Positions 1-34,976 of a stretch of 34,976 bases of DNA are shown here, piece after piece. The DNA lies in contig JAQBYT010000039.1 in assembly GCA_027622665.1 (NCBI GenBank), forward strand, positions 1 to 34,976. Reading direction: 5' to 3'. A model generated the notes under the pieces. It had not been told where the DNA came from and made no database searches. It saw only the letters and a list, made by a program, of their open reading frames with translations. Source of the stretch: Verrucomicrobiota bacterium. Its GTDB lineage: Bacteria > Verrucomicrobiota > Verrucomicrobiia > Opitutales > Seribacteraceae. The translations under genes and the position numbers were made by a program. Every line of letters starts with the position of its first letter. The stretch's first letter is position 1.

Positions 1-830
1 ACGCGACCGACGTCGACACGGCATCCGCTTCGTTGACTTGGAGCGTTTCCTCTCCTGCGACGTCCGGTACTGCAACGGTCGCGGGTTCGGGAGCATCCCC
101 TGCCATCTTCACCTATGTCCCCACTGCTAATTTCAACGGTATCGATAGTTTCTCCGTTAGAGTCTCCGACGGGACCCTAACCGACACGATTGTCTTCAAT
201 TTGGTGGTAACCGCGATTGGCGACGCTCCCGTAATCACGGAAGGAGATAATCCCTTGATGATTTCGATGTCCGAGGATGGAAATCCAACGGCATGGATCG
301 CGCCTTCGTTGAACGCAACCGATGCAGACGGTGATACCTTGACTTGGCGAATATCCTCCGCAGCCTCGAACGGGATCGCAATGGTCTCGGGATCAGGAGC
401 CTCCCCCTCGAACTTCAGCTATTCCCCCTCCCTGAATTTCAACGGGGACGACAGTTTTGTGGTTCAGGTATCCGATGGAGTCCTAACCGACACCATTTCC
501 GTGAACGTAAACGTGGTCGCAGTGGACGACCCTCCCGTAATCACACAGGGAGATGCCCCCCTATCCAACATCGTTGCAGAGAATGCGACCACCGCTTGGA
601 CCGCGACCGAGTTGAACGCAACCGACGTCGACACGGCATCCGCTTCGTTGACTTGGAGCGTTTCCTCTCCTGCAACGTCAGGTATCGCTACAGTCTCAGG
701 ATCGGGAAGCTCGCCCTCGACCTTCACCTACGCCCCCGCCACTAACTTCAACGGAAACGACAGTTTTGTGGTTCAGGTCTCCGATGGGAGCCTGACTGAT
801 TCGATCACGGTGGACGTTACCGTGATTGAA
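1..830 (+). repeat. Tandem Big_9-like repeats (~307 bp) within CDS 1
   Basis: nt 1-68 match 616-683 almost exactly (accgacgtcgacacggcatccgcttcgttgacttggagcgtttcctctcctgc). ttcaacgg..acgacagttttgtggttcaggt.tccgatgg occurs near 438-478 and 747-788. Confidence 0.85.
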
Positions 831-3800: not shown

Positions 3801-6680
3801 CAATGGGGGCAAACCATCGGCGGTCCCGGCGAGGACAGCGGGAAATCCGTTACGGTTGCTTCGGACGGTTCCGTGCGTTGGGTCGGTAACATTACAGAAC
3901 AAGCGGTCTTGAACGGCAGTCCCCTTGCATCCTCGGGCAACGACGATGTCTTTTTGGCTAAGCTTTCCCCTGCAGGGGACGTCGATTGGGTGCAGACCGC
4001 AGGGAGTGAAAATATAGATCGGGCCCAAGCAGTGGTCACTGATCCGATCACCGGTTTCACCTACGTGGGTGGCGGAGTGAGCGACGGATCTAAAAACAAC
4101 GCTTTCCTTCTCCAGTACGATGACAACGGAACGCTACTCTGGGAGGAGAAGATAACTGGAGTAATGAACAATCAAATACTCGACCTCGCGGCAGACGAAT
4201 CGGGAGTATATCTTGCCGGCAATTTCGAGGGCGAAGCCACCATCGGGAACTTGACAATGACCTCCGGAGGCAATTCCGACGGCTTCCTCGCAAAACTCGA
4301 CCCAGAGGGGAAACCTCAATGGACGCAAACGATTGGCGGCGCTGACAACGACTACGCCCATGGCGTGGAGATCGACCCTTACGGAGACCCCGTCCTCGTG
4401 GGCCATTTCCTAGGCTCCGCTTCCGTAGGCGGCCACTCCATTGAATCGGCGGGCAGCTCCGACCTCTTCCTACTCCAGGCAAGCGGCGACTCCGGCGGGG
4501 TCATGCGCATTCGTTCGATGGGCGGTACGGGTTCTGAGCAAGCTGGCGAACTGGCCGTCGACGAGAATGGCGCCATCCACGTTTCCGCCCATCATGGAGG
4601 CGAAGCCACCGTGGACGACTTTCCAGTCACCAACGAAGGCAAACCCGGCTCATTTCTGGTCATGGCGGGAGGCCCGCACGGTCTCCCCACGACCACCATT
4701 CCCTCACAATTGTCCATCGTACCCGGGAAAAGCTTCGCTCTGGATATCAACGCCTCCATGCCCGATGGCCCAAAACCTTCCTTCTTTATCCCGAACGCAC
4801 CGGATTGGCTATTCCTTCAAGACAACGGAGATGGCACCGCCATTCTCTCGGGTACGATTCCGGCTTCAGCCAAAGGTGACCTCACTACAACCATTCGCGT
4901 AAGCGACCTCGAAGGCGGAGTGGTGGAAAGACAGTTGATCCTCAAGACGGGCATCCCCGTCACCCATACGATCTCGGTTACCGTCGTACCCGCGGGTGCT
5001 GCGACCATCGGTGGAACGGGAACCTACCGACACGGCGAACAAATCACCCTCACGGCAATTCCTCTAAATGGGTATCGCCTCTCCCACTGGTCCGGTGGCA
5101 GACTAACCTCACCAATTGCAATCGCCCAAACATTGACCGTCACCGAGGATCTCACACTCACGGCAACCTTTGATCTCGAACCGAGCATCCCCGACACCCA
5201 TACGGTATCGGTCTCCGTCGTACCTGCCAATGCCGCGATCATCGAAGGGGCGGGAACTTACGAGCACGGCAAGCAAATCACACTTACTGCGATTCCTCTG
5301 AGCGGTTATCGCCTTTCTCAATGGTCCGGCACTGCCCTAACCACACCGGATGCGATCACTCAAACCTTAACTGTAACCGACGATATCACCCTTGTCGCCA
5401 CCTTCGAACTCGACCCGAACGCCGGCACACTAGCCTCTGTTTTTCATGCCCAAGATCTTGGTAATTCCTGGTACAGAAGTTCATGGTTCGGGGATTTCCA
5501 CCAAACGACCGAAAACTGGATCTACCATCTTGATTTCGGCTGGATATATTCCACAACTTCAAACGTTAACTCACTCGGTCGCCGAAGACGCAGCTCCAAC
5601 GAAAACAACGGTGTCTGGTTCTGGCAAGAGGAGTTGGATTGGGTTTGGACCACCTCCGACATATTCCCACACCTATATCAAGCCAACGCGAACGAGTGGC
5701 TCTTTTACCGTAAAGGTTCCTCCAAACCCGCAATCCTCTATGACTATGATAACAGCGAATGGTTTACCATTTCCCTCCCCCGCTTCGGGATTGAAACGAT
5801 CGTTTTTCCGGAAGGAGGAGGCGCAGTCGTGGGAGGGGGTTCGCACAAGGGGGGCAACCGCGTTTACCTTGTGGCCAAACCCAACAATGGATATATTTTT
5901 GCAGGTTGGGAGGGGGATGCTGAAGGATCTGAAAATCCCCTTGCGCTAGACAACCTAAGTGAAAGCGTACAGATCGTAGCTCGTTTCAGAGCTATCTCCA
6001 ACGGTATTCAAGGAATTGCCTCCGTGATCCAATCAGCAACCCATCTGACCAACGACGAGAAACGAAACGCCCTGATCCAAATCGCACTTACCGGGACTTC
6101 CCCTCTAGTGAGCATTGGTTCCGGAAATAATGGAAACTCCCCCAATATCCTCTCCCCAACTCTTGACGACAGCTCGAAAAAAATGAATCCGGAAGCGTTC
6201 GGGCCCAGCTCCGCCCAAATGGAGCATGCCTTTCTCCCTTGGAAATCGGGATGGTCGGGGGAAGTCGACCAGGAGGGGGGGCAGAGACTCTCGATACAAA
6301 CAACAAAAACCGAAAAAATCTACGGCGTAAATTGTTTCTTAGTTGAAAGCACTGCGGGGAACGGTTCATGGAAAAGCAGATGGTTCGCCCGCGACCTAAA
6401 GGGAACGATTTGGCTCATCCGCGAGACACGAGGACAAAGGCTTGTCGACATCGCCCAGCCTTTTATTCCTTTACACCCCGAAGCAGGATGGAAGAACTGG
6501 ACCGACGCTTCCGCCATTCCCAACGAGTTTGTGGTCATCGGCAGCACAACCTCAGCCGTTCGACTTTCCACTGGCGAAATTCTTGAGAATTGTCTCCGTT
6601 TAATCGTACACTCGTCCGAGGGCACTCTGATCGAGTACTATGCCAAGGGTCGCGGGTTAGTGAAAATTGAAAATCCGTGA
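3..6680 (+). CDS. Giant secreted/surface protein, 5'-truncated by the window (Big_9-like and dystroglycan-type cadherin-like repeats, DUF5011/HYR-like domain, SBBP-type beta-propeller, InlB B-repeats, Trp-rich module, C-terminal DUF3108-like domain)
   Basis: The frame is open from nt 3 (ATDVDTASASLTW) and begins mid-repeat, so the track's TTG at 33 is not the true start. Motifs: FTYxPxxNFNGxDSFxVxVSDG (Big_9-like); PxFxSxP...DPDG...PxWL...LSG (cadherin-like/He_PIG); APTLSLKG...GEPFQDPGYVASDD...GVYTLIYEVSDRDGN (DUF5011-like); repeated DxFLxKLDxxGxxxW...GG (propeller); TLTAIPxxGYRLSxWSG (InlB B-repeat). Stop TGA at 6678-6680. Confidence 0.92.
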   Translation, partial: ATDVDTASASLTWSVSSPATSGTATVAGSGASPAIFTYVPTANFNGIDSFSVRVSDGTLTDTIVFNLVVTAIGDAPVITEGDNPLMISMSEDGNPTAWIAPSLNATDADGDTLTWRISSAASNGIAMVSGSGASPSNFSYSPSLNFNGDDSFVVQVSDGVLTDTISVNVNVVAVDDPPVITQGDAPLSNIVAENATTAWTATELNATDVDTASASLTWSVSSPATSGIATVSGSGSSPSTFTYAPATNFNGNDSFVVQVSDGSLTDSITVDVTVIEMNATLVVANPIADIVVYENAEDKVIDLSNVFEDEDDDNGLITKTANSSNALLVTATVSGETLTLNYQTNRSGTATITVTATSNGQTIIDVFTVTVKVSSDPYFVSTPIITTAGDVDYFYKAEAADPDGNQTIKISYVGRPPVWLTAHTDDDNLSIVLSGRASKSDEEASAGNPYHIKFAVTDDRNVTVYQEFDIKVSINYPPVFANGPYSTTMSEDSDPVGWTPPSIIATDDKGAPLTWSIATQPENGIAEANGTGSSPENFTYTPNANYYGMDNFVIRAFDGVRHTDANVSVMISPKADPPFFASTPPTYSRAGQEFRYEVTVIDPDGGDTTIRNFGLPKEWLNFYDENASDGIASIVGIPPVQMEGKTYAISLVANDPTGRLVFQSFILKVAPWNIPPVIAEGDKFEVTVSEDVPSSWSAPVLNATDSDGDTMSWSIAEGQEPNHGIATVEGNGSRPTTFNYIADANYSGEDSFVIRVRDGYEDLNATINVTVSPINDAPAFTSAPITVVNDGSTYSYSITTIDSDGDGHTTLSAPVLPSWLTLENHGDGTATLSGSVSGQLGVHEVVLSVSDEIDSSSQIFTVTVNNLPPVITQGTEINAEMDEDGFPSPWIPPTLTATDQIETLLVWSLDANASHGQVVIEGNGSSPLIFTYKPDADFHGIDSFVAKVSDGELSDKVTVTVTVSPSNDPPFLLEAPPLTAREGSNYSFTLRTGGNLTDQPLTLSLTQGPEWLNLENLGDGTGLLQGTVPLGNRGKHHLHITLTDDENATRKLAFMMEVIDGVAPTLSLKGTSHIRHPKGEPFQDPGYVASDDLGEDLTSAVVISAQVDANTSGVYTLIYEVSDRDGNKATPVTREVYIPDPSQTPRALQVVSPKGAVETVAVAVDQNGVRYLAGSFRDTAVFDAIILQAENSDAFLICLEANGSVRWAKSFGGLGPDEATDVAIGLDGSIYLSGAFAGLVQVDGISLISSGGADGFLIKLDPEGSLQWGQTIGGPGEDSGKSVTVASDGSVRWVGNITEQAVLNGSPLASSGNDDVFLAKLSPAGDVDWVQTAGSENIDRAQAVVTDPITGFTYVGGGVSDGSKNNAFLLQYDDNGTLLWEEKITGVMNNQILDLAADESGVYLAGNFEGEATIGNLTMTSGGNSDGFLAKLDPEGKPQWTQTIGGADNDYAHGVEIDPYGDPVLVGHFLGSASVGGHSIESAGSSDLFLLQASGDSGGVMRIRSMGGTGSEQAGELAVDENGAIHVSAHHGGEATVDDFPVTNEGKPGSFLVMAGGPHGLPTTTIPSQLSIVPGKSFALDINASMPDGPKPSFFIPNAPDWLFLQDNGDGTAILSGTIPASAKGDLTTTIRVSDLEGGVVERQLILKTGIPVTHTISVTVVPAGAATIGGTGTYRHGEQITLTAIPLNGYRLSHWSGGRLTSPIAIAQTLTVTEDLTLTATFDLEPSIPDTHTVSVSVVPANAAIIEGAGTYEHGKQITLTAIPLSGYRLSQWSGTALTTPDAITQTLTVTDDITLVATFELDPNAGTLASVFHAQDLGNSWYRSSWFGDFHQTTENWIYHLDFGWIYSTTSNVNSLGRRRRSSNENNGVWFWQEELDWVWTTSDIFPHLYQANANEWLFYRKGSSKPAILYDYDNSEWFTISLPRFGIETIVFPEGGGAVVGGGSHKGGNRVYLVAKPNNGYIFAGWEGDAEGSENPLALDNLSESVQIVARFRAISNGIQGIASVIQSATHLTNDEKRNALIQIALTGTSPLVSIGSGNNGNSPNILSPTLDDSSKKMNPEAFGPSSAQMEHAFLPWKSGWSGEVDQEGGQRLSIQTTKTEKIYGVNCFLVESTAGNGSWKSRWFARDLKGTIWLIRETRGQRLVDIAQPFIPLHPEAGWKNWTDASAIPNEFVVIGSTTSAVRLSTGEILENCLRLIVHSSEGTLIEYYAKGRGLVKIENP
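3470..4665 (+). other. Beta-propeller region (SBBP-like, about 7 blades) within CDS 1
   Basis: Repeated VxVDxxGxxYxxGxF...S.GxxDxFLxKLxxxGxxxW.xxxGG units in the translation. Confidence 0.75.
4962..5415 (+). repeat. Two tandem InlB B-repeat-like units (234-bp period)
   Basis: acccatacg...gtcgtacc at 4962 and 5196; protein THTISVTVVPAGAATIGGTGTYRHGEQITLTAIP vs THTVSVSVVPANAAIIEGAGTYEHGKQITLTAIP. A third, divergent copy lies at ~5780-5990. Confidence 0.85.
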
Positions 6681-8384: not shown

Positions 8385-8414
8385 TTGATAATTCATACTT
8401 TGAAAAAGTATTTT
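8385..8414 (+). promoter_or_regulatory. Candidate sigma70-type promoter with overlapping palindrome
   Basis: TTGATA (8385-8390), 18-nt spacer, TATTTT (8409-8414). A perfect inverted repeat ATACTTT-gaa-AAAGTAT spans 8395-8411, in an AT-rich region upstream of the giant ORF. Confidence 0.35.
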
Positions 8415-26700: not shown

Positions 26701-29700
26701 TCTGGAAAATAAAAATGATTCTAATTCAACCGATGGCTGGGCCATTTTCACTGAAAGCAACAACGACACCAATGTCCTTGTTCGCGGTTCTTCCAACGCC
26801 GCCATTTCTCCGAACGTAACCTCTTCCTGGAAAGCGAACAATTGGCATCACGTAGTCGCGGCTTTCAACTTCGCAAACGTCGAGGTCTTTGCTGACGGAA
26901 TATCCCGGTCTTCGGGGGGCGTCGACCCCGTGAAACCCGGTGGTAAATCTCTTAAAATGGGCAAATGGCATAACGGCAACGGCAACACCTTTGAGGGGCT
27001 CATGGATGATCTGCGACTTTACGACAAGGTCTTGACGGCCAATGAGGTGGTCGCACTATTCGGAGGTGGTTCGGGCGACTTCGCGCGTTCGTCGACCGGC
27101 ACTGCCGCAACGATTAAGAATAGCGGCACAGTCACTCTTACAGCTCACGCTTCCGGAACCAAGTCCATGTACTCCGCGAACACTGTGAGCAAAACGGTGA
27201 CCATCGGAAAAGCTCCCTTGACGCTTACTGCCGACGACAAGACACGGAACGTCGGGGTAGCCAACCCGCCTTTGACCCATTTCGTAAGCGGTTTCGTAAA
27301 CGACGACAACGAAACCACAGGTCTCACATCGACCATTTCGCTTAGCACTGAAGCCAATGCTTCCAGCCCGGAGGGCACCTATGCAATCGTTCCAAACGCA
27401 ACTGCAGACAAATATTTCATCACCTACCTGAACGGATCCTTAATAGTTAGCAACAAGACCTCACAGTCGATCTCCTGGACCCAAGACTTCTCTAATATCG
27501 CCTTAAACCAGTTCGTGGACCTCAACGCGAGTTCTACTTCCGGATTGCCGGTGCTCTATGCCATTGCGAATCCGGACATCGCCGAACTCGCCGTATCACT
27601 CCAAGGAAACTTGGATGCATGGTGGAAGATGGACTCTCCTTACGGTTCCACCATATTCGACTCCTCGGGCCAGGGCGGAACCGTTCGCAACGGCATCCTC
27701 CAAGGAACCGATGGTTCATCCTCCAGAACCGTAGGCAAATTCGGAAACGCACTGATCCTAGATGGTACGGATGATCATGTGCTGATACCCGGATATGCAG
27801 GAATAACCGGAAAAAGTCTCCGGACCATTGCGCTCTGGTTCAAAACCACAGTGGACAATCGCCCGCTGCTCTCCTATGGAGGACCGGGCAACGGCGCATT
27901 GTTCGCAATCTCTCTAAACTCGGGCAAGGTGTCTCTCGACTTGGGAGGAACCACGCTGGAGGGCGGGACCAGCCTCGCGGACGGCGCATGGCACCACTTA
28001 GCCGCAGTCGCTCCAATGGATGCGGATGCCTCGGAAGTAAAGCTCTACGTAGACGGAGCGCAAGTGGCTTCGGGAAGCGGAACAACCTCCATAAACACCG
28101 CTGCATCTAGCTTTGTTAAACTCGGAACGGACGGAGTAAACTACTTCAACGGCCAACTGGACGACGTTCGCTTCTACGCCGCCGACCTGAACGCCAACGT
28201 AATAGCCAAAGTGTACGGAGCAGGCATTGGTGACTTCAACCGCATTCGCATGAAGGGTGCGGGAACCACCTTCATAACCGCTAGCCAACCGGGAGACGCA
28301 ACCTTCTCATCAAGCACCAACGAGAGCACTCAGATTACGGTTGGCAAACTCGATCAGACCATCGCCTTCGCTCCCCTGCCAAACAAATCCATTGGCGACT
28401 TCGACTTCGATCCGGAAGCAGAAGCCAGTTCCGGTTTATTCGTCACATACCAAAGCTCAAACCCGCTGGTCGCCTCTGTCGAAGGAATTACCCCGGGGAG
28501 TCAGACCATCAAGATCCGCACTGCCGGCACCACGACGATAACCGCCACTCAACCCGGCGACTCATCCCACAACCCCGCAACAGCAGCCAGCCAAGTTCTA
28601 TCTATTGGTTACTACAAGCTTTTCAAGGAATCGATTTCCGGCATGGAACTGTGGCTCGATGGAAACAACGTGAACGCAGATGCGCTCTCCGATTCCATAA
28701 CAAGCGGTTCTCCCCTTTACATTTGGAACGACTCATCCGGGAACAACCGCAATGCCATACAGGCAACACCTGCCAATGCGCCAATATATAAAAAGAACGC
28801 CTCCGAGCTCACGGGAAAAGGCTTTGTCGTTTTTTCTTCCGTTACCAAAATTCTCGAACTGCCTGCAGTCAACGGTCCCAAGACCATCTTTGCGATATTC
28901 AGGCAAACGGGACTTGCCGCTAAAACCAAGTTACTCGGCGGCGATCTCGTCTCCACCTCGACGAGCGGAAACGTAGCCCTACAAAGGGAAGGTGGAAATC
29001 CCTTGATCGACTCATCAACTTCAGCGGCATCCTTTCACATAGTAACTTGGCAAGGTGACGCCGGAGCCTATGCCTTACACGTGGATGGCGCGGCAAAGGG
29101 CTCGGGAACGGATGCGCAGTCATTGGCGTCACTCACCAAAGTCGGCAACGGCTTGATCGGTCAGGTGACCGAAATCGTCGTCTACAACCGTGTGCTCCCC
29201 TCACCCACCCAGCGAAAGATCGAAGGTTATCTGGCTCACAAATGGGGACTCCCAAGCCAACTGCCAAGCGTACACCCCTACAAGAATCTACTGCCAACCT
29301 TTGGCGGAGAACAACAGCTCTATTTTCAGCCGATATCCGACAAACCGGTTGGAAACAATTTCCCGTTAACCGTCACCTCGGACTCTGGTCTCACTGAGTT
29401 CACCTACGACAGCAACGACTCAAGTATCGCCTCGATCACAGGAAACATCGTGTCCACCCATAAGGAAGGAAAAGTAACGATCACCGCCATCCAACAAGGC
29501 GACTACAACTGGTTTCTTGCCTCTGCCACTAGAGTACTCACAGTAACCTCCACACCTAGAAACGAACAAACCATAACCTTTGGGCCGCTGCCGGACAATA
29601 CTGCTCTCGACGCTCCGTATGATCTCAATGCCACCGCGTCGTCCGGCTTGCCCGTAAGCTACCAGAGCTCGAATCCGGCCGTCGCTACGATCACAGGATC

Positions 29701-32700
29701 GAATGTAAGTATCGTATCTCAAGGCATCACCACCATACGAGTCTCACAAGACGGTAATGGAAACTTTAACGCGGCTCCCTTCGTCGAACAGCAACTAACC
29801 GTAACAAAAGTCCCCCAAACCATCAATTTCGCACCTCCTCCCGCTCAGCCTCTCAGCACCGGAGCATTCATACTCGAAGCCAACGCCAGTTCGGGACTCG
29901 GCATCACCTTCGTCAGCGACACCCCATCAGTCGTCTCTATCGCAGGAAACATGGTCTCTCTCTTAGCAGGCGGCACAACGAGAATCACGGCTATACAACA
30001 AGGCAACGCAACCTACGAAACCGCTCTGGACGTTACCCGGACCCTTACCGTTGTAGATGTCTTCGCAAACATGCCCCCAACAGTCGCCAACACCCTTCCG
30101 GACCTGAACGCCATCGAGGATGACGCCAACGTATTCGTCAACCTAGCCAACGTATTCGACGATGAAGACGACAACAACAGTATCATCACCAAAACGGCAG
30201 TCTCCGGAAACGCGATCCTTCTAGCCGTAACGGTCACCGGCAACACACTCGAGCTAGACTTCCAACCCGACATGTTCGGCTCCACCATCGTCACCGTAAC
30301 GGGAACGTCAAATGGCATGCCGGTAAACGACTCGTTCCTCGTCAACGTCGCCCCGGCAGACGACTCGCCGGTAACGGCAAACGAAATCACCGATGTAAAC
30401 GTGACTGAAGACGCCTCCGACACTTTGATTAACCTCTCCAACGTATTCAACGATGTTGACGATGACAATACAACCATCGCCAAGACGGTGGTTTCCACCG
30501 ATCCATCTCTGGTAACGGCTACGGTAAACGGAAACATCCTAACGCTCGAATATCAGGCGGAACAAAACGGTACGGCAACGATCACGGTGACGGGAACATC
30601 GAACGGACAAACTGCCGTCGACACCTTCACTGTTACGGTCATGAGCGTGGACGACCCACCGATTGCAGTAATTGCGATTGCCGACGTCACCGTGAATGAG
30701 GATGCGGCCAACACGGTGATCAACTTATCGAACATGTTCAATGATCCTGACAACGACAACACATTGATCACCAATACCGTAGTCTCAAGCGTTCCCACTT
30801 TAGTGATAGTCTCGGCAAGCGGCAACACAGTAACTCTCGACTATCAACCTAATCAGTTCGGCTCCGCGACGATCACAGTAACGGCGACCTCGAACGGATT
30901 GACGGTCGATAACAACTTCACGGCGACCGTCACTTCAGTCGATAATCCTCCGATAGTGGTAAACCAGATTGCCGATGTGAACGTAACCGAGGACGCATCT
31001 GATTCGGCTATAAACCTCTCAAACTTATTCAACGATCCGGACGACAACAATACTTCGATCACGAAGGCGGCGGTTTCGAGCACCCCGTCCCTGGTAACGG
31101 TTTCCGTAAGCGGCAACACCTTGACGCTCGACTATCAGGCGGAGCAAAACGGCACCGCAACGATCACGGTGACGGGAACATCGAACGGACAAACTGTCGA
31201 CGACATGTTCACTGTTTCGGTAACGAGCGTGGACGATCCGCCGGTGGTGGCAAACGCGATCACAGACGTAAACGTACTCGAAGACGCTGCCGACACCACG
31301 ATCGATCTCTCTAACATGTTCAACGACATCGACGACAACAACGCATCGATCACAAAGACGACAGTTTCAAGCGACCCATCTCTGATCACGGCTACGGTCA
31401 ACGGAAACATCCTGACGCTGGACTATCAACCTGATCAAAACGGCACAGCTACCGTAACGGTGACGGGAACCTCAAATGGACAAACGATTGACGACACTTT
31501 CACTGTTGCGATAACCAGTGTGAACGATCCTCCGGTGGTGGCCAACGCGATCACCGACGTAAACGTACTCGAAGACGCTGTCGACAGCACGATTGATCTG
31601 TCTAACTTGTTCAACGACGTGGACGACGACAACATGTCGATCACAAAGACGGTGGTGTCAAGCGACCCATCTCTGGTAACGGCTACGGCAAACGGAAACA
31701 TCCTGACGCTGAACTATCAACCCGAGCAAAACGGCACCGCTACGGTAACGGTGACGGGAACCTCGAATGGACAAACTATCGACGACACTTTCACTGTTGC
31801 GATAACGAATGTGAACGATCCGCCGGTGGTGACAAACGCGATCGAAGACGTAAACGTGATCGAAGACGCCGCCGACACCACGGTCGATCTGTCCAATTTG
31901 TTCAACGACGTGGACGACGACAACGTATCGATCACAAAGACGGCGGTTTCAAGCGACCCATCTCTGGTAACGGTCTCAGTAAGCGGCGACACCCTGACGC
32001 TGGACTATCAACCTGATCAAAACGGCACCGCTACGGTAACGGTGACGGGGAACTCAAATGGACAAACTGCCGACGACACTTTCACTGTTGTGATCACGAA
32101 TGTGAATGATCCACCCGTGGTGGCAAACCCGATCAGTAACATCAATGTAAACGAAGACGCTGCCGACAAGACTATCGATCTCTCGAATATATTCAACGAC
32201 GTGGACGACGACAACGCATCAATCACTAAATCAGCGGTTTCAAGCGATGCGTCCCTAGTGGCGGCATCGGTAACCGGCAACACACTCACTCTTAGTTTCC
32301 AACCCAATCAATTCGGCACCGCTACGATTACGCTAACGGGAACCTCAAACGGTCATACCGTTGACCAAGCATTCACGGTGACTGTGACGATCGCCAACGA
32401 CCCGCCGGTGGTGGCAAACCTGATCACCGACGTAAACGTACTCGAAGACGCTGCCGACACCACGATCGATCTCTCCGACGTATTCAACGACGTGGACGAC
32501 GACAACGCATCGATCACGAAGACGGTGGTTTCAAGTGCCCCTTCTCTGGTAACGGTTTCCGTAAGCGGCGACACCCTGACGCTCGACTATCAGCCTGAGC
32601 AAAACGGCACCGCGACGATCACGGTGACGGGAACATCGAACGGACAGACAGTGGACGACATCTTCACTGTTACGGTGACTAGCGTGGACGATCCGCCGGT

Positions 32701-34976
32701 GGTGGCAAACGCGATCACCGACGTAAACGTACTCGAAGACGGTGCCGACACCACGATCGATCTCTCCAACTTGTTCAACGACGTGGACGACGACAACGCA
32801 TCGATCACGAAGACGGCGGTTTCAAGCGACCCATCTCTGATCACGACTACGGTGAGCGGAAACATCCTGACGCTCGACTATCAGGCCGAACAAAACGGCA
32901 CCGCTACGATCACGATCACCGGAACATCGAACGGACAGACAGTGGATCACACCTTCAGTGCTACGATGACTAGCGTGGACGACCCACCGGTTGTGATAAA
33001 AGCGATCGCGGACTTGACGGTGATGGAGAACGCTCCCAACACAGTGACGAACCTCGCGAACGTATTCAACGACGTCGACGACAATAACGCATCAATAATC
33101 AAGACCCTGCAAGCCAACAGTGATCCTGGTCTCGTCACCGCGACCATCGCTGGAAACGACCTGACCCTCGATTTTCAACCTAACCGGTTCGGATCCTCCA
33201 CTATCACCTTGCTGGCCAGCTCGAATGGAAAAACAGTGGAAGACTCCTTTGAGGTGAATGTTTCGCCCGTCGACGACGCCCCCGAGGTGATCAACGGCAT
33301 AGCCGACGTTTCGGCCGAAGAGGATGCCGACGATTTCATCGTTTCGCTTGCAAACGTATTCAACGACATCGACGACGACAACGCGTCCATAGGCAAGACC
33401 CTACAAACCAACACCAATCCCGGACTGGTCGCCGCGACCATCGTGGGCGACGAGCTCACCCTCGACTTCCAACCGAACCAGTTTGGATCCACGACCATCA
33501 TGGTGCGAGCCACTTCAAACGGAAAAACCATAGAGGATTCATTCGAAGTGAATGTTACTCCCGTTGACGACGGTCCCGAGGTGAGCATCGGTGTAGTAGA
33601 TGTTTCGGTCGAAGAAGACGCCAACGACTTAGTCGTTTCGCTTGCAAACGTATTTAACGACGTCGACGACGACAACGCATCAATAGGCAAGACCCTACAA
33701 GCCAACAGCGATCCCAGTCTCGTCACCGCGACAATTGCAGGAAACGAGCTCACCCTCGACTTCCAACCGAACCAGTTCGGGTCTTCCTCAATCACCGTGC
33801 TGGCCAGCTCGAATGGAAAAACAGTGGAAGTCTCCTTTGAGGTGAATGTTTCGCCCGTCGACGACGCCCCAGAGGTGGTCAACGGCATAGCCGACGTTTC
33901 CGCCGACGAGGATGCATCCGATTTCATCGTTTCGCTTGCAAACGTATTCAACGATATCGACGACGACAACGCGTCCATAGGCAAGACCCTACAAACCAAC
34001 AGCAATCCCGATCTCGTCACCGCGACCATCGTGGGCGACGAGCTCACCCTCGACTTCCAACCGAACCAGTTCGGATCCACGACCATCATGGTGCGAGCCA
34101 CTTCAAACGGAAAAACCATAGAGGATTCATTCGAAGTGAATGTTTCTCCTATCGACGATCCCCCCGTCGTCTTAAACCCTATTGCGGATTTGGTATCCTT
34201 GAACACCGGGCCGAATATAACAATCAACCTATTCAATGTCTTCAACGATGTGGACGACGACAACGCATCCATCCAAAAAGCAGTTATTTCCGGCAACCCC
34301 TCCCTCGTCACCACGAGCATCGATGCCGATATCCTCACCCTCGATTTCCAAGCGGATGCAAACGCCTCGACGACGGTAACGGTAACCGCTACATCAAATG
34401 GTCAGGCAGTGGACGCAGTCTTCAACGTAGGCGTGTTCGAACCGAACGCTCCTCCCGTCACCGCCAACCCCATCGCCGATGTCGAGGTATTGGAGGACGC
34501 CCCCGACAGAACAATCGACTTGGCCCAAGTATTCGACGATCCTGACGACGAAGGCATCACAAAAACCGCGGTATCCAATCCCCCCTTCCTCGTCATCGTT
34601 ACCGTCGTAGACGATGCCCTCAGTCTAAACTTTCAACCTAATTCATTCGGCACTGCTACAGTTGTGGTGACGGGAAATTCCCGAGGACAAACCGTGGACG
34701 ACGTCTTCACGGTGACGGTCGCCCCCGTGGACGACGCTCCCGTCGTGACAAACGCGATCTCAGACGTTTTCGCAGACGAGGACGACCCCGACTTCGTTCT
34801 GTCCTTGATGAATGTATTCAACGACGTCGACGACGACAACACGTCCATACTCAAAACAGTACAAGCCAACACCAATCCCGGACTGGTCACCGCGACCATC
34901 GTGAGCGACGAGCTCACCCTCGACTTCCAACCGAACCAGTTCGGGTCTTCCTCAATCACCGTGCTGGCCAGCTCGA
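8702..34976 (+). CDS. Giant (at least 8,758 aa) Sec-exported multidomain adhesin/lectin-like protein, 3'-truncated by the window
   Basis: In-frame TAA at 8690-8692, then ATG 8702. Alternative starts TTG 8708 and GTG 8711 are better spaced from GGGGGA at 8695-8700. Signal peptide MNLVNKPLITSITRLGLTILSFISGFWIAPGARA|N. The same frame still reads DFQPNQFGSSSITVLASS at 34922-34975. The ORF track lists no + ORF in this frame after 8702, consistent with no internal stop, and manual translation gives coherent domains throughout. Confidence 0.95.
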   Translation, partial: MNLVNKPLITSITRLGLTILSFISGFWIAPGARANAVRPVITVTSPTYAYPIPVGVTFQQDGDANVSVTGFDVSDLNVTNANVVANSFSGSGHAYTFNLTPTSDPARITVSIPAGAANGDGNASVANSMTIEYFWLEVTRSADLALWYRFNETSGGTALDSSGNGQDGTLRNMDDADWVDGKYGNAIDLDGNNDDVLTPLDGHHNMDYSWSVWINTTDGNGGILSITENNWSQGGKGLYVSGGNPQIDAGWVSNGIGPIALNDGSWHHVALTIKDSQSNSDPYVIYLDGVSTKSGAMDWFQFDGTAQDLRVGYIGIDDGKALAGKLDDLRIYEGVLTPNDVAAIYAGDIGTPKISGPATASANPGFPFSLSDFNATVTNSLFPPTWSASGLPAGLTIDALTGVISGTPTGTPTAAGTKSDANVTATNGYGSTKHTLAITLFPLPSVATVAPATDLSLYGAKANGSFTDATGTACIATVYVDTTDKGTSDASAWSYSFPLGTVESGDISREVTGLAIDTTYRYRFSVANAGGIPVWTNAAGSFTTLPQLSPPLLGEVNASDTTSYSSTVNGMLADTGGETPTVTIVWGDEDRGTDYADLDIWDNKVTLGLIGSGTFSINLTGLQLGKVYYARTAAANVAGKIVSTSMAVLTPSFKPLASISPSNYAGLQIWFDANDSSTLWQDAGGTSPAGPGTAVEQWNDKSGNGHTATRTAGTLSLVGNQINGMSVVNFADNTYANVTGSIHSKQQYFVFNLSNVGDWGSVLGSQQRSGYMLNRNGYMWDLNYPAAVKQNGGAELSGNFQLSNISNFMIVRVTGNNTSVRSGWALGRQEGWGRLDMNLAEVISFDTTLSTIEEYELEGYLAHKWGLADKLPTSHPYKTAAPPPAITSPATSSATVGQAFGFQVTSSITASYYAYNLPPGLTCNLSTGYISGTPTVGGVYAVTLLAEGASVSATGSLTITLPTSSPIITTASATNVVANAATLIGQITNTGGRDANVTVYWGTVDGGQGSWQNEQNLGIKGIGEIVLNVSALLPGQLYHYRFKADNSQGGTGGAVWTVGGNFTTTSSAQSPTLGNVFSVTDVTNSSAKLTGSLAGTGGDTVTYTFHWGPTDGNQTVANWANHIAINNAAIGNLSAEITSVMTPPAIYFARGEASNSVGSIWTETMLVFSPVKMGSAGLMTTFPGLKLWLKADAEADGANWLDQSGNANHATKQGSPTLVENTLNGLPVMRYSGTNGEYHGFTNMTDIRTVFWVVKRNTGSPSFLLGDNNVYHFHSDGSSTFEGRSSPNARNGSLAFNGATTTYQTPIPSAMTVISLRTTGDVEANSFSNDRNIGGRYWNGDLAELLIYDTPLNDAEIRNTEGSLSWKYGLQGDLVSDHPHRNADPSSPQPVISITNSLSAEAAKGMAFTYQITATGSPTSYGLYNTPSWLDLNASTGVITGTPPIGGVYKVSISAANSLGSDVKEMTIIAGDNAPFEYSLDITPDYAGSNQLTDWHMLIKLSESNATLYNLGFRYKQFKAGGADLRFQTTAGVECTYGISQWNPQGESTIWVRVPTLSAGDKIIMRWGNPNATAPAYSDNFQLPSASPPSHVPEASDYDVAYALDIPTSAGWNSKAIPYSADTSADIVNGSFTRIAYYMELVDGSGTKWVWVSMDKFTDDARLLGVPNTSSGEFWHYGITGPITNANILSNANGITTGNGINTVNLEFWPSNYNGSNGYGVPGANAGKHDFGDGGAGTNAGYASMQVHNYGAGQTLFAYNSWGSGNGELGIGNRSTGEPDWTFSNNIGSYSARKLMVLVFSGSKPDALAFSGFQGPPFFVGSANLYGKKGSPFSQQLDYRGSDPMVYSAVGLPPGLSLNVVTGEISGTPLTTGETGITVTVDGQNASGTPRSETRSFSIKLSDPSAFPMKMALTLSGYDGNSTLKDFPVLIDFHPGLNNFSYSTFLSSTGGDLRFFGKNGQELPYEIENWDVTGRSRIWVKVSSVSGVNTSITAAWGNPATGADPSYFIDGSTWGNGFSGTWHFTNVVAGSFSDSSPLRNHAINNGATVDTVGEIGPAADFNGASTASVVYSPSLNPSKFSASAWVKRAIPPANGINGFLGFGYEQNINNNYFEDIELLRALTPNGSNFVLGEPDNPEGNGFFFDGDADFQNAGIGISRNDQYMDLWSANFNAPENGNYFFQMDQADDSAAIWVDLDQDNLFETNGTNGNEKIGGPSNFTSSAIALVAGQTYKIALAHGEGGGGSRFRAWIQTPSLSMRVIKPFEPAQNGFFTNDPLLKDSTIFSTQDKSGPNGYALHSKNGKFQFRSGGNADPQVAHNNDVWHHLGMTYDGTTKRLYLDGSTAGESVMTVDRNTVSDFNIGSAWDGLIDELRISSTVRSADWIQASFDNQRLASDFVSYGNVTSPRLITSTLNASVSAWDAFDYNVTAVGSPYLYTAFNLPNGLQFNATTGNISGNPTIAGSFPVSLMAFYANDDGNVTDSDSIPDVVGSTDSTEPAKQVILQLNVISTPPVIQTTEASSVSANSASFNGNVISDGGDPPTVRIYYGTQDGGIDPTAWLNMLEIGKKGQGTFGHIIGSLIPEVTYHYRVRAFNSAAPDGVWGSGTFVPGAKATGSIEITGDPNEGPPRTGLIGEWLFDGDNANDTSGNGYDGNSSANVVYSADTPWGTGKSVNLNNNAYITVDDGTANQSIFDLDRLSISFWAKEWPSNGWGAYVAKYGEGGQGYQIRRNGGDASKLSWTLRGPSNDDWNAVVNDGGQFNKWVHVLAAFGDGIRKLFLNGVEKGSENRGGNINDTTSMLAFGCKDNNGNFAFAPGAYSNAFMDDIRIYDRLLTENEISRLSAIALQITIPLRTGGSIVYGGGPLEDLNATPPVWKHTGTPAAIAASLKACIEDDGGHNGEITVTNPSTGNLTLTQSNTGIFAQSITGNLGGQNANYLSGFTGGINDSDPSKTFTTPSSDLPVVDNGNLRDVSDTGATLTGLVPHIGAGAVTNEDLRFSADKFQNLMFWVDANNSESLDKGGSFGSEGSPANGDTVGYWGDLSGNSNNATPHLGDSAREPTYLAAGLNGKPAIYFDGTDDVLVAQNSATFDDWENLTVFIVAEGNNTADWSPLISKNGEDNQGWLFGKRNGAQSRWRVHGTSGAVDQNLNLTPNAIRIWSLTYGDGTRKSFGDGLLQASLTDTGKIAAAPNSPLAIGALVRNNGNLESHANLLVSEVLVFKKSFADKDRHLVEGYLAHKWGLTGNLDSSHPYKSMKPGEPSNGVDLTLYWGSSDGETTPNHWENSIELGKYFSKRTSSGFQGTGYLVNPNGNYFNDIETLRSLSSQLPPKLINGEPDDSATNGFYFDGDDDFKNSGIGINRNDNYMDLWISDFWPKETGYHIFRMDRKDDYVTIWIDLDQNGLFQTTGDKGNERLGGTNNFDSAPIPLIAGQSYKIALAHGEDQGGSGFRAWIETPTLSDRVINPLEPAQDGLYAAVLGLSNGAPQNSQIKLESTLSNLQPGQTYHYRLHGSNSLGSVWADTTAVFVAEKKINLSTGSLTFKTDGPIPNWYTTSGQSGTGELVSNSYIDQEGNTISYDVAKFEFASLYVGDGAKVHLQGNNTLEIAVSGDATILVPLDLNGSEGTDAGNSNLPGRLGGGHGGHEWKNAADPWGRGGDPANLTTVSSFNSGGKPLAGMNGNAGLATGQEPGGGGFGGRGGRSETVVASGEHQLVQPGGQTYGDADITHLFGGSGGGGGNERSGGTGGGGIKIVAGETLTIGGSIHAIGGKGGARPNEARQSGGSGSGGAIYLKGKHIVIQQGVSIKADGGDGATGITNGNTYVTDGIGGGAAAGGGGRIFMEATESLLNIESSTNSNFSTNGGISPGYRHGVSGSMKILKPQVTELVFHSGTITIDTDKGTINHSDGSFLAGSLTENFFLSSAGTAYPYKICTFIADRINLGVNLSVNLKGTAALSLRTRNHGDIIISANIVANGGNNPTDDDGGIGRLAGWDGGKKQRDGQGPGKGKDRTQSNIGGGGGYGGPGWTNQNQLLTHGLSYGDSKVTHLIGGSGGGGGGNKGGGAGGGAIELMADGVGTITIGATAKISVNGGDTTDKIGGGGAGAGGSIRLIGASIVNNGTLEATGMAITSDMNGGGGRIAFVSDGKLIVGTTNVTGFQPGTVSVLGNNDVTDLAFSTGTLFINTTNGTWHHSDGKHGTGVISMGDDSGIPYGICAYTFDSINLPAGLTVVLEGHNALILKTRNHGNIVVETDLKADGGNSVDADDPWGNNLYTYTGGKGKLGGHDGGPSNANGTGPGKGKASVGNGEGGGGGYGSAGAGSDEATYGMTYGGEALSHLHGGSGGGGGGNRGGGAGGGAISLEADGNGTLTIGAGATISANGGISTRGDNEGGGGSGGSLRFAGKSITNNATIEAKGGDVVGNGNQSYDGGGGRVAFNYSYNLNQGTVDIGTGSYAGTIAENTPPIIVGDLNATATYSNENYPPPVTQQEHLTGWWEFDNPTNLGEDSSENLSHLNDNGNPTFHATGKWDGAIYLDGNDMLEQGAVFPSNVPTGGTAYSISCWINPDQGGNRGIVGWGTYGSASRVNALRMNGNNDIYNYWWGNDLNAGSGGDLRTGTSPDGWHYILATYDPALGSNRQKIYIDGLIKAQRNASGLNAGAGSFTIGRTGTNEYFQGLLDDLRIYATALTTSDLAQIYAGDIVKAIPSINFAVTALKGPQSYSAIDLPDALTINPTSGLISGTTMAIGEHNVTIQASNLSGASAPQTLVLTVRPNIPILLDLNASTVGATYAMVDFSILDTGGENPALTLFHGTTDGNQTSGDWTANVPLGTLGSGIHSASLTGLTNNTQYFLRARAVNSAGTVWTVDHNFTTSALVGPPIIATLPSTSVTTTSSTISGNLFSYDGGDQPNVTLYYGDEDNGTNDSAWDNSVVIGSKGIGTFTHNLTGFTPGTRYFYRFKAVNSGGTAHSAGAGAFVTIGTPAIEDKPATNLTETSGTLNARITALGGVTYFIGAPFNNASLPGLIMWMDGNDPNGDGTSDTNTSNITVWNDKSADARHLAWTRGDPQFEANVLNGMGVVDFDGNDGIGQNDKTMYNDTANGFSMFAVSRYDGTDSERVISSIENWNWHFAGHGQYHTRIANFNGWGYLGTDTEQDNNDWHIYEVTHTNTDRGNYWLDAVKVGTDTTGSGDGDNWRPKRIRFSGWQEGNLEESQCQIAEFLTFNRVLSEEERLKVEGYLGQKWGLHATMFANNHPYVSVDPFHPLITQGGEQASVTFYWGDDNGSANGNVWDNNHGVAGTHDLGLIKHDLTGLTKGATYYYSAKVSNSGGDAWAQTRTFAPANRLLGKDTISGLVLWLDASDMDGDNSIDDLANGSAIASWTDKSNQANQALQTIAANRPTYKKSVFGEKPGINFDGTGDFLYLVDSLRLTAGPISAYVMSKRDVQGGDSAAYLLGENIWNLTAGPGNSPYSPEIKKFSASSGKTITNLKIGKDGTSSSFDFAGDIAEVLIFDRELTSEETDQVEGYLAHRWGASASLFSNHSYRESPPSFDNSPKITMKPYVSPVGVVPIPLSPAIISSMNVWFDANDSSTTNTNWSDKSGNGHTATRTAGTLTLVDNALNGMPVVNFADNTYANVTGNMYSKQQYIVFNLPNVGDWGSVLGSQQRSGYTFNRSGYMWNTNYPAAVRQNGGPELSGNFQLSNIGNYMVVRITGNNNNTSVRSGWALGRQEGWGRLPMNLAEVVSFDTTLSTIEEDELTGYLAHKWGLVGDLPASHPYKYLRFKSSKRYVLHVGTPMNLQVETTKGPESYSAGSTLGQYGLSINSNTGLISGTPDKLGDFNCTISVLNSSGSDTKSFFFRALKGTKSINWDQSLVGLTYGDAPVELNASATLGGVSYSSSDETIVAFGGQEVRNPILENGLVRYWAFDEANGSTTASDVRGSFDGALAGGAAFVAGKFGNAVEFDGSTAEVDFGLGAGDLGDKFTISVWVKWTGADSPANAMRILENKNDSNSTDGWAIFTESNNDTNVLVRGSSNAAISPNVTSSWKANNWHHVVAAFNFANVEVFADGISRSSGGVDPVKPGGKSLKMGKWHNGNGNTFEGLMDDLRLYDKVLTANEVVALFGGGSGDFARSSTGTAATIKNSGTVTLTAHASGTKSMYSANTVSKTVTIGKAPLTLTADDKTRNVGVANPPLTHFVSGFVNDDNETTGLTSTISLSTEANASSPEGTYAIVPNATADKYFITYLNGSLIVSNKTSQSISWTQDFSNIALNQFVDLNASSTSGLPVLYAIANPDIAELAVSLQGNLDAWWKMDSPYGSTIFDSSGQGGTVRNGILQGTDGSSSRTVGKFGNALILDGTDDHVLIPGYAGITGKSLRTIALWFKTTVDNRPLLSYGGPGNGALFAISLNSGKVSLDLGGTTLEGGTSLADGAWHHLAAVAPMDADASEVKLYVDGAQVASGSGTTSINTAASSFVKLGTDGVNYFNGQLDDVRFYAADLNANVIAKVYGAGIGDFNRIRMKGAGTTFITASQPGDATFSSSTNESTQITVGKLDQTIAFAPLPNKSIGDFDFDPEAEASSGLFVTYQSSNPLVASVEGITPGSQTIKIRTAGTTTITATQPGDSSHNPATAASQVLSIGYYKLFKESISGMELWLDGNNVNADALSDSITSGSPLYIWNDSSGNNRNAIQATPANAPIYKKNASELTGKGFVVFSSVTKILELPAVNGPKTIFAIFRQTGLAAKTKLLGGDLVSTSTSGNVALQREGGNPLIDSSTSAASFHIVTWQGDAGAYALHVDGAAKGSGTDAQSLASLTKVGNGLIGQVTEIVVYNRVLPSPTQRKIEGYLAHKWGLPSQLPSVHPYKNLLPTFGGEQQLYFQPISDKPVGNNFPLTVTSDSGLTEFTYDSNDSSIASITGNIVSTHKEGKVTITAIQQGDYNWFLASATRVLTVTSTPRNEQTITFGPLPDNTALDAPYDLNATASSGLPVSYQSSNPAVATITGSNVSIVSQGITTIRVSQDGNGNFNAAPFVEQQLTVTKVPQTINFAPPPAQPLSTGAFILEANASSGLGITFVSDTPSVVSIAGNMVSLLAGGTTRITAIQQGNATYETALDVTRTLTVVDVFANMPPTVANTLPDLNAIEDDANVFVNLANVFDDEDDNNSIITKTAVSGNAILLAVTVTGNTLELDFQPDMFGSTIVTVTGTSNGMPVNDSFLVNVAPADDSPVTANEITDVNVTEDASDTLINLSNVFNDVDDDNTTIAKTVVSTDPSLVTATVNGNILTLEYQAEQNGTATITVTGTSNGQTAVDTFTVTVMSVDDPPIAVIAIADVTVNEDAANTVINLSNMFNDPDNDNTLITNTVVSSVPTLVIVSASGNTVTLDYQPNQFGSATITVTATSNGLTVDNNFTATVTSVDNPPIVVNQIADVNVTEDASDSAINLSNLFNDPDDNNTSITKAAVSSTPSLVTVSVSGNTLTLDYQAEQNGTATITVTGTSNGQTVDDMFTVSVTSVDDPPVVANAITDVNVLEDAADTTIDLSNMFNDIDDNNASITKTTVSSDPSLITATVNGNILTLDYQPDQNGTATVTVTGTSNGQTIDDTFTVAITSVNDPPVVANAITDVNVLEDAVDSTIDLSNLFNDVDDDNMSITKTVVSSDPSLVTATANGNILTLNYQPEQNGTATVTVTGTSNGQTIDDTFTVAITNVNDPPVVTNAIEDVNVIEDAADTTVDLSNLFNDVDDDNVSITKTAVSSDPSLVTVSVSGDTLTLDYQPDQNGTATVTVTGNSNGQTADDTFTVVITNVNDPPVVANPISNINVNEDAADKTIDLSNIFNDVDDDNASITKSAVSSDASLVAASVTGNTLTLSFQPNQFGTATITLTGTSNGHTVDQAFTVTVTIANDPPVVANLITDVNVLEDAADTTIDLSDVFNDVDDDNASITKTVVSSAPSLVTVSVSGDTLTLDYQPEQNGTATITVTGTSNGQTVDDIFTVTVTSVDDPPVVANAITDVNVLEDGADTTIDLSNLFNDVDDDNASITKTAVSSDPSLITTTVSGNILTLDYQAEQNGTATITITGTSNGQTVDHTFSATMTSVDDPPVVIKAIADLTVMENAPNTVTNLANVFNDVDDNNASIIKTLQANSDPGLVTATIAGNDLTLDFQPNRFGSSTITLLASSNGKTVEDSFEVNVSPVDDAPEVINGIADVSAEEDADDFIVSLANVFNDIDDDNASIGKTLQTNTNPGLVAATIVGDELTLDFQPNQFGSTTIMVRATSNGKTIEDSFEVNVTPVDDGPEVSIGVVDVSVEEDANDLVVSLANVFNDVDDDNASIGKTLQANSDPSLVTATIAGNELTLDFQPNQFGSSSITVLASSNGKTVEVSFEVNVSPVDDAPEVVNGIADVSADEDASDFIVSLANVFNDIDDDNASIGKTLQTNSNPDLVTATIVGDELTLDFQPNQFGSTTIMVRATSNGKTIEDSFEVNVSPIDDPPVVLNPIADLVSLNTGPNITINLFNVFNDVDDDNASIQKAVISGNPSLVTTSIDADILTLDFQADANASTTVTVTATSNGQAVDAVFNVGVFEPNAPPVTANPIADVEVLEDAPDRTIDLAQVFDDPDDEGITKTAVSNPPFLVIVTVVDDALSLNFQPNSFGTATVVVTGNSRGQTVDDVFTVTVAPVDDAPVVTNAISDVFADEDDPDFVLSLMNVFNDVDDDNTSILKTVQANTNPGLVTATIVSDELTLDFQPNQFGSSSITVLASS
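9125..9745 (+). other. LamG-like jellyroll (Laminin_G_3-type) domain; related copies at ~14735-15880, 16590-17225, 22160-22795, 26440-27080, 27605-28235
   Basis: LALWYRFNETSGGTALDSSGNG...GNAIDLDG...SWSVWI...NDGSWHHVALT...IYLDG...GKLDDLRIYEGVLTPNDVAAIY. Confidence 0.85.
10690..11340 (+). other. Second LamG-like subtype (WxDA...EGYLAHKWG...HPY); related copies at ~12245-12850, 17710-18470, 23755-24460, 24745-25335, 25430-26030, 28635-29290
   Basis: GLQIWFDAND...WNDKSGNG...NGMSVVNF...LAEVISFD...EGYLAHKWGL...HPYK. Confidence 0.75.
13125..13430 (+). other. DUF2341-like domain (second copy ~14420-14705)
   Basis: GADLRF...YGISQWNP.GESTIWVRVP...MRWGNP and GDLRFF...ELPYEIENWD..GRSRIWVKV...AWGNP. Confidence 0.75.
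14990..15517 (+). other. PA14-like domain (second copy ~18595-19123)
   Basis: DQYMDLWSANFNAPENGNYFFQMDQADDSAAIWVD...IALVAGQTYKIALAHGEGGGG, with the PA14-type DD motif at 15260-15265 (18866-18871 in copy 2). Confidence 0.7.
19290..22080 (+). repeat. Three tandem Gly-rich units (~290-350 aa; starts ~19290, ~20345, ~21200)
   Basis: Each contains GGGG(F/Y)G...(T/S)YG...HLxGGSGGGGG...GG(A/T)GGG(A/G)I...GGxIxL...GGGGR(I/V). Confidence 0.85.
27205..27450 (+). other. MBG-type Ig domain
   Basis: KAPLTLTADDKTRNVGVANPPLT...SGFVNDD...ANASSPEGTYAI...YLNGSLIV. Confidence 0.75.
30068..34976 (+). repeat. Array of at least 17 tandem cadherin-like repeats (291/294 bp; 97/98 aa; unit 16 is 285 bp), continuing past the window
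   Basis: Unit starts at 30068, 30359, 30650, 30941, 31232, 31523, 31814, 32105, 32396, 32687, 32978, 33272, 33566, 33860, 34154, 34445, 34730. Consensus DDPPVVANxIxDVxVxEDAxDxxIDLSNVFNDVDDDNASIxKT...LTLDYQP.QxGTATITVTGTSNGQTVDDxFTVTV. Confidence 0.95.

Follow-up and report, generated by a model that had tools for sequence, protein, structure and literature searches.

A probable divergent PglB-type N-glycosylation system and sequon-rich giant surface proteins in a marine family of the Opitutales

Introduction

Dense N-glycosylation of large surface proteins is carried out by archaeal AglB (S-layers) and by eukaryotic STT3 (cadherin and Ig ectodomains), both of which use the plain sequon N-x-S/T. 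The closest described counterparts of the system reported here are the pgl systems of Campylobacter, in which exported and membrane proteins are modified at the extended sequon D/E-x-N-x-S/T (PMC9816155; this and the other articles given by PMC number are cited for their accessible parts). PglB is known outside Campylobacter as well, including systems of Desulfobacterota and of deep-sea vents (PMC7313396, PMC4894442). These other systems belong to epsilon- and delta-proteobacteria, Deferribacter and Aquificae, and several of them have a relaxed rule for position -2, whereas the proteome signal described below points to a strict requirement for D/E at -2.

In this study, a DNA stretch of 34,976 nucleotides (the window, which is a whole contig, C34) was analysed together with the genome that it comes from (G000; assembly of 4.52 Mb, 93.5% complete) and with related genomes. 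Judged from sequence, the marine Opitutales family to which we refer as f1 very probably has a divergent PglB-type general N-glycosylation system, whose substrates have gained sequons and whose donor sugar is probably a different one. An initial annotation of the window had described N-glycosylation as uncharacterised in this lineage, and a literature search, outside which most subscription papers and supplements lay, found no description of PglB or N-glycosylation for Verrucomicrobia or Opitutales. Verrucomicrobia are unmentioned in the accessible parts of PMC4894442 and PMC12229607, as is glycosylation in that of PMC8857213; a verrucomicrobial PglB homolog could stand in the sequence tables of PMC4973528, which is likewise accessible in part, or of PglB surveys. 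The system and its substrates appear to be undescribed, while the STT3-domain label was already attached to these proteins in Atlas clusters.

Results and Discussion

Gene content of the window

Three genes were found in the window, all on the forward strand. The first, CDS1 (3..6680), is truncated at its 5' end and encodes a giant surface protein, of which the C-terminal 2225 aa are present, with Big_9/cadherin-like, Ig-like and InlB-B/Flg_new_2 repeats. The second (6677..7936) encodes a protein of 419 aa with an N-terminal hydrophobic segment, a coiled-coil/linker and a C-terminal part that resembles, by eye, an outer-membrane beta-barrel; no Pfam family matched it. The third, a giant ORF (8693..34976) that is open at its 3' end, encodes at least 8761 aa with LamG, He_PIG, PA14/GLEYA, DUF2341 and MBG_2 domains, Gly-rich regions and a cadherin-like array of 17 units of ~97 aa (30068..34975). 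Its start and a Sec-type signal peptide are likely encoded at 8702..8803, where an ATG stands behind GGGGGA and the peptide, delimited by eye, ends in A-R-A. Pfam searches of the window proteins returned Big_9, cadherin-like, Ig-like, LamG, He_PIG, PA14/GLEYA and MBG domains.

An apparent tandem duplication was observed: the giant tail and the OMP-like gene at 3-7936 of the window have a paralogous pair at G000:C1:1-6836, in which an ORF (C1:1-5841) with 55.7% identity to CDS1 over 1994 aa is followed by a paralog of the 419-aa gene. The window's giant ORF probably continues in C1 (the array type matches, with no exact overlap), and the paralogous tail on C1 would then probably complete the giant, which would exceed 10,000 aa.

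A Trp/Tyr-rich domain of ~100 aa is encoded at 5442..5765 (+) within CDS1 (aa 1814-1921). A custom HMM of this domain retrieved 29 proteins of G000, in which it mostly lies close to the C-terminus and which together contain 446 extended sequons (51 expected), as well as 18 fetched ORFs of the family and one ORF from outside it. The domain residues of CDS1 have no Pfam match, and in Atlas they fall into unnamed Verrucomicrobiota clusters with a low recognition score. Possibly, it is a candidate sorting or anchoring domain of the Opitutales.

Excess of extended sequons in the window proteins

Extended sequons (D/E-x-N-x-S/T, where x is not Pro) were counted in the window proteins and in their shuffled versions. 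CDS1 contains 35 N-x-S/T sites, and the same 18 of these that the initial annotation had counted are extended, against 2.4±1.5 in whole-protein shuffles (maximum 7, n=300) and 2.7±1.7 in local shuffles of 50 aa (maximum 9). In the giant ORF, 72 of 162 N-x-S/T sites are extended, against 13.1±3.2 (maximum 23) after whole-protein shuffling and the same expectation after local 50-aa shuffling. Since the non-repetitive residues 1-7126 contain 41 extended sequons (8.4±3.1 expected), the excess is not confined to the repeat array, which has 31 (5.0±2.1 expected). The 90 sites of the window are encoded by 84 different 15-nt codon strings and therefore do not represent a DNA-repeat artefact.

Control motifs behaved differently. 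The reversed motif occurs twice in CDS1 and seven times in the giant (2.5 and 13.0 expected), the motif with Gln for Asn zero times and once, and that with A/G at +2 is flat (2 and 13). The motif with D/E at -3 exceeds its expectation in the giant (29 against 13.7), and this probably stems from DDDNAS runs.

The individual sites that had been listed for the giant were recovered at 8888, 8924, 9059, 9815, 9959 and 10364, although the list of its early stretch was incomplete, as ENNWS at 9383 had been missed. Likewise, 16 of the 17 array units carry at least one extended sequon (unit 1 taken from its site list). Two other remarks needed correction: D and E, thought to make up about one residue in seven, account for 12.1% of CDS1 and 10.3% of the giant, and the OMP gene, which had been contrasted with its neighbours, does lack extended sequons, but only 0.2 are expected in it and it was dropped as a negative control.

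Genome-wide pattern

The excess over shuffled sequences extends from both window giants to the whole genome. Among the 3259 ORFs of G000 (obtained with a simple longest-ORF script, so that starts and compartment classes are rough), 1624 extended sequons were found against 692 after shuffling (2.35x), and 1542 of them have distinct 9-mer contexts. The ratios for control motifs were 0.89 (reversed), 0.91 (Gln), 0.92 (K/R at -2), 1.01 (D/E at -1) and 0.91 (D/E at -3), and non-extended N-x-S/T gave 0.85-1.07 in every protein class. Depletion with Pro at the flanking positions had been proposed as a test, and the excess is indeed gone when Pro is present (1.09 with Pro at +1, 0.99 with Pro at -1). 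A bias for D over E, T over S and A/G at ±1 was also recorded, close to DQNAT, the peptide used with C. lari PglB (PMC12229607).

The comparison of secreted with cytoplasmic proteins, also proposed initially, separated the two: among complete proteins shorter than 1000 aa, 383 sequons against 200 expected (1.9x) were counted in the exported/membrane class, 220 against 182 in the ambiguous class and 133 against 137 (0.97x) in the soluble class. Flagellar proteins, a control that bypasses the periplasm, gave 2 sites against ~5.0 expected, in only seven proteins picked by eye.

A sequon excess with P < 0.001 was found in 52 of the 3259 ORFs. The highest-ranked include giants (80 against 5.0, 56 against 3.2 and 52 against 2.5), while SecDF, YidC, SecG, an FKBP, NfeD and an ExbB-like protein rank lower; in SecG, the FKBP and the ExbB-like protein the sequons cluster in terminal tails. 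Substrates of the densest kind would carry up to 92 sequons per ORF, compared with the 33 glycoproteins, 9 of them multi-site, of C. hepaticus (PMC9816155). Among other large proteins of G000 are a 13,428-aa ORF (C2:14213-54499, -) with 71 extended sequons against 15.3 expected, a 2388-aa protein (C30:114103-121269, -) with 31 sequons and a tandem repeat of units around DEGNQT/DDGNQT, and a protein of 4164 aa on C14 in which there is no enrichment (6 against 4.9).

The PglB homolog and its altered donor site

The initial annotation had named an STT3/PglB homologue as the gene to look for, and an intact one, the lone STT3 gene of the genome, is present at G000:C43:2660-5920 (-). The predicted protein of 1086 aa matches PF02516 (STT3; 71.9 bits) and PF21436 (STT3-PglB_core; 74.7 bits), both above cut-off, and its best PDB matches are C. 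lari PglB (E 5e-43; profile E 6e-215). As in the PglB proteins of C. lari and C. jejuni (PDB 3RCE, 5OGL, 6GXC, 3AAG), the equivalents of catalytic and acceptor residues are conserved. Residues D123, R218, D225/D227, E451, R463, R529 and W631 are invariant and W630 and D632 nearly invariant in 26 aligned sequences; they map to D56, R147, D154/D156, E319 (TIxE), R331, R375 and WWD463-465 of C. lari PglB, whose metal/catalytic, acceptor and donor roles have been described (PMC7226087, PMC4894442). Equivalents of the WWDYG motif (contact to the +2 Ser/Thr; 630-634 in G000) and of R375 (pyrophosphate) are thus present, and so is, in the profile alignment, that of R331 (R463), which contacts the acidic residue at -2 and which alone does not set the -2 rule (PMC4894442).

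On the donor side, the protein departs from Campylobacter. Y468, described for C. lari PglB as an essential residue with strict conservation (PMC6215017), is replaced by Ser, and DGGK, a conserved motif with a presumed role in binding the lipid-linked donor (PMC8342417), by TSPA, in all 12 aligned sequences of the family. The family proteins are also longer (1040-1145 aa against ~712 aa), as they have an insertion in EL5 (CxCxxC in G000) and extend further at the C-terminus, and the G000 protein reaches 196.6 bits on the NCBIfam PglB equivalog NF050801, well below the cut-off of 1300. DGGK was reportedly called essential by Barre in 2017. Among 35 aligned homologs, 20 combine Ser/Thr at the Y468 position with the absence of DGGK and 15 combine Tyr/Phe with DG[GSA]K; six of the 20 are more distant homologs outside the f1 clade. 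The homologs P0013-P0021 share the donor site with Ser/Thr for Tyr and without DGGK. Three further homologs (P0028, P0034 and P0046) are 1549-2213 aa long, one of them with a weak Sel1 match.

The two replacements, together with the lack of a pgl cluster linked to pglB, would fit an enzyme that is inactive or repurposed (e.g. as a hydrolase freeing oligosaccharides), with the sequons as a relic. We regard this as improbable, since the reading frame is long and open in nearly all genomes of the family, catalytic and acceptor residues are invariant at 50-89% overall identity, and sequons are still gained and lost among orthologs and paralogs; moreover, that both replacements go together in 20 of 35 sequences is better accounted for by a changed donor site than by decay. 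The PglB-like identity is well supported on the acceptor side, and the sugar is uncertain because two donor-binding features differ; the Ser/TSPA site probably signifies a reducing-end sugar other than that of Campylobacter. As to the expression of pglB, none of 14 listed runs contained half of the query words, and in four RNA runs the gene was covered by short contigs only (9-17 of 30 bins), whose reads could be DNA.

Distribution and genomic context of pglB

PglB was found in 22 of 24 genomes of family f1 and in none of 16 from other Opitutales families; in an overlapping sample, a PF21436 search found it in 16 of 18 genomes of the family and in 0 of 282 other Opitutales genomes. Close matches carry titles of Opitutia/Opitutales/Puniceicoccaceae MAGs. 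The taxonomic placement follows from these titles and from Atlas taxa, as a 16S search of the assembly gave no match; f1 may correspond to MB11C04 of GTDB. Within the family, it was missed in G002 (51% complete), G016 (91%) and G300 (86%); G002 and G016 are still enriched in sequons (18 against 2.6 and 6 against 1.9), and the misses are therefore consistent with assembly gaps. In G024 the gene has internal stops, and at that locus (L166, G024:C8) pglB and several adjacent genes are in pieces, probably through assembly errors. A survey of 400 Verrucomicrobiota genomes gave four partial, weak matches (E 1e-14 to 8e-4), which we treat as distant STT3-like genes. Such genes, of ~710 aa, were observed in another family of the Verrucomicrobiota, f76 (L155 and L156, in G440 and G371).

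In 14 of 15 fetched regions of the family, covering four genera, pglB lies directly behind one conserved upstream gene (the ORF was not called in G258). The two membrane-protein genes upstream (L002:5979-9984, G000:C43) are conserved across four genera, have no informative Pfam match and resemble MotA/ExbB and ExbD, by eye, at their termini. Both occur in five of five Opitutales genomes from outside the family, and in all three of these where the next gene is visible it is not pglB. A FastTree phylogeny (59 rows, five rows of the family left out) unites the PglBs of the family in a single clade with support 100, placed among homologs from the environment; its rows are without taxon labels, and no donor lineage is named. 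We infer a single gain of pglB in the ancestor of the family.

Directly behind pglB lies a gene for an FG-GAP protein with a (PGDGNFTD)n repeat (G000:C43:1-2435, -, L002), in which 43 of 45 N-x-S/T sites are extended. It runs off C43 and probably continues on C57 (G000:C57:21098-22582, -; 12 more sites), the contigs joining within the repeat. The start of this gene is found behind pglB in genus g1 (G000, G003, L004) and is absent there in G007 and in other genera. From its repeat, the protein looks like an N-linked mucin-type stalk.

The co-distribution of pglB and sequons represents one lineage event, and many genes are specific to this family, so that the enrichment might be driven by a different enzyme or binding partner, likewise specific to the family and recognising D/E-x-N-x-S/T. 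This alternative is highly improbable in our estimate: the exclusion of Pro and the preferences for T over S and D over E are the known acceptor rule of PglB, and the family-restricted gene at hand is a PglB with its acceptor-binding residues intact.

Genes for glycan assembly

In Campylobacter, PglC, D, E, F, A, J, H and K are encoded beside pglB in a single locus; here, no such cluster adjoins pglB, and no glycan genes were recognised next to pglB in the 15 regions. A similar separation is known from H. pullorum, where pglB is apart from some or all of the glycan genes and the pgl genes form five loci (PMC6025236). Elsewhere in G000, three Bac_transf phosphoglycosyl transferases, a WecA-like gene, 22 GT4-type matches, dehydratases and aminotransferases were found, and PglD_N was not found in this 93.5% complete assembly. 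One cluster, on C13, contains genes for a PglK-like ABC transporter (E 3e-92, below cut-off), a small phosphoglycosyl transferase, a dehydratase and a LegC-family aminotransferase. A single-protein query detected the PglK-like flippase in 10 of 19 genomes of the family and in 2 of 13 others, and this patchy distribution does not support it as a dedicated partner of PglB. From sequence, none of the matches in G000 appears assignable to N-glycans. Pathway genes for pseudaminic acid (PseB and PseI, both above the NCBIfam cut-off) were observed at G000:C40:7819-9898 (L163).

Comparison with PglB-lacking families

Raised counts of D/E-x-N-x-S/T could also be a structural feature of Ig and cadherin folds (an Asx turn, a Ca2+-binding loop or an N-G turn) that is unrelated to glycosylation. 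In the array unit, DDNAS-type sites sit in the acidic loop 32-40 and D/EQNGT at the end of the loop 66-70, while EVNVS/DVNVT lie in strands. An AlphaFold2 model of one unit is a cadherin-like beta-sandwich (pLDDT 94) that matches dystroglycan/cadherin folds (E 1e-4); its DNNAS falls within the block modelled with least confidence, loop 32-40, and its DQNGT ends loop 66-70. The strand-located sites would be open to modification, if ever, only in the unfolded protein. The fold is like that of N-glycosylated eukaryotic ectodomains; unlike AglB and eukaryotic STT3, however, the enzyme here belongs to the bacterial PglB type, and no enrichment of plain N-x-S/T is seen.

Homologous proteins from families with and without PglB were compared; these sets contain orthologs that are not independent, and the contrast between f1 and the others is one evolutionary event. 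For Big_9 giants, 20 regions with long open frames were picked per group from the 150 listed Big_9 matches. The ORFs of at least 900 aa from f1 loci (26 ORFs, 58,416 aa) contain 453 extended sequons against 78.8 expected (5.8x), with a non-extended ratio of 1.00, whereas those from outside (30 ORFs, 74,553 aa, one shadow ORF dropped) contain 84 against 74.2 (1.1x). Big_9 domains placed on the CDS1 profile gave 76 against 5.6 in the own set (37), 138 against 17.7 in f1 (121) and 19 against 12.6 outside (95). For array-unit homologs, the counts were 39 against 7.2 (own) and 10 against 3.4 (outside); seven of the outside sites are at the N-G-T turn, and the DDNAS column holds 19 own sites and none in outside units.

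The difference is not limited to these folds. YidC has 44 sites in 15 f1 orthologs (no ortholog was matched in G009) and none in 15 from outside; the sites change position among orthologs, with the D/E-x-N-x-S/T pattern retained. SecDF has 48 sites in 16 f1 orthologs and 16 in 15 outside ones, and one DANxT site is common to 30 of 31 orthologs, 14 of these being among the 15 outside ones; without it, 32 and 2 sites remain. The other genes shorter than 900 aa in the fetched f1 loci (SecDF and YidC filtered out by pattern) gave 118 against 32.6 for exported and 8 against 14.2 for soluble proteins, and those in outside loci 8 against 9.0 and 9 against 8.4, respectively. Thus, homologous domains and orthologs of PglB-lacking families, a comparison that had been suggested at the outset, show no enrichment comparable to that of f1 (Big_9, YidC).

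Several observations agree with the structural explanation: giants that lack PglB have a mild surplus of N-x-S/T (783 against 646), DDNAS sits in an acidic loop, the SecDF DANxT site is nearly universal, and the column-70 site of the array occurs as DWNGT in G051, from a PglB-lacking family. In G051, the N-G-T turn gives seven extended sites, and an ORF (L082, G051:C29) with the Trp/Tyr-rich domain has 11 sequons against 3.8 expected; these sites may be structural N-G turns, or the contig may be misbinned or transferred. A minority of sites (the array N-G-T turn and one SecDF site) are indeed structural turns that are also found without PglB. For the bulk of sites the explanation is refuted, since the excess in homologous Big_9 giants and domains is 1.1-1.5x outside f1 against 6-14x inside, extends to YidC, to linkers and terminal tails (SecG, ExbB-like protein, FKBP) and to tandem repeats, and is gone with Pro at ±1; as a full account of the pattern it is extremely improbable.

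Within f1, five related Big_9 giants (L179, L180, L182, L183 and L184; ~3,030-3,240 aa) of genera g3 and g5 show no excess (22 against 21.7), though both genera carry pglB. A different export route was considered and rejected as the cause, as these proteins seem hydrophobic at the N-terminus and in most cases carry the Trp/Tyr-rich domain at the other end.

Proposed model and significance

The proposal of a PglB-like general N-glycosylation system with giant substrates is supported by the sequon statistics, the enzyme and its distribution, and has to be amended in that the donor side departs at Y468 and DGGK and some sites are structural. The system is best read as a variant of PglB-type N-glycosylation that is Campylobacter-like on the acceptor side, as judged from sequence statistics and conserved residues, and differs at Y468, DGGK and locus structure. 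According to this model, the ancestor of the family would have gained an orphan PglB-type oligosaccharyltransferase, presumably by horizontal transfer. As an inner-membrane enzyme, it would transfer a lipid-linked glycan in the periplasm to the Asn of D/E-x-N-x-S/T on Sec-exported proteins. Selection would then have added a few sequons to housekeeping membrane proteins (YidC, SecDF, SecG, the ExbB-like protein and FKBP), dozens to Ig/cadherin giants, including the two of the window, and one per unit to tandem repeats such as (PGDGNFTD)n. Giants would pass from Sec export through glycan transfer by PglB to surface display, and the benefit may lie in protease shielding, solubility or stiffening of surface fibres.

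A more far-reaching version is tentative, and we think it somewhat doubtful: the enzymes would form a distinct N-OST subtype with a strict D/E-x-N-x-S/T acceptor, a rebuilt donor site and a reducing-end sugar without a C2-N-acetyl group, used for a eukaryote-like glycocalyx in which cadherin/Ig fibres, bearing up to ~2 N-glycans for every 100 residues, would occur together with N-linked "mucin" bottle-brushes, among them the (PGDGNFTD)n protein. If this were true, proteome-wide sequon excess could detect hidden N-glycosylation systems from sequence alone.

PglB glycoengineering is limited in that the enzyme prefers donors whose reducing-end sugar carries an N-acetyl group (PMC6215017); the altered donor site is relevant to this limit and makes f1 PglB a concrete candidate enzyme. 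If the preferred reading of a divergent PglB-type system is true, peptides of glycosylated adhesins would be missed by standard metaproteome searches. The family, which has PglB and sequons where its relatives have neither, would also be a clean natural experiment in proteome adaptation after the gain of a modifying enzyme. General N-glycosylation would reach a phylum without listed cases in the literature found, its carriers being marine heterotrophs, and the density of sites would greatly exceed that reported for Campylobacter; heavily glycosylated giant adhesins could matter for the attachment of these bacteria to particles.
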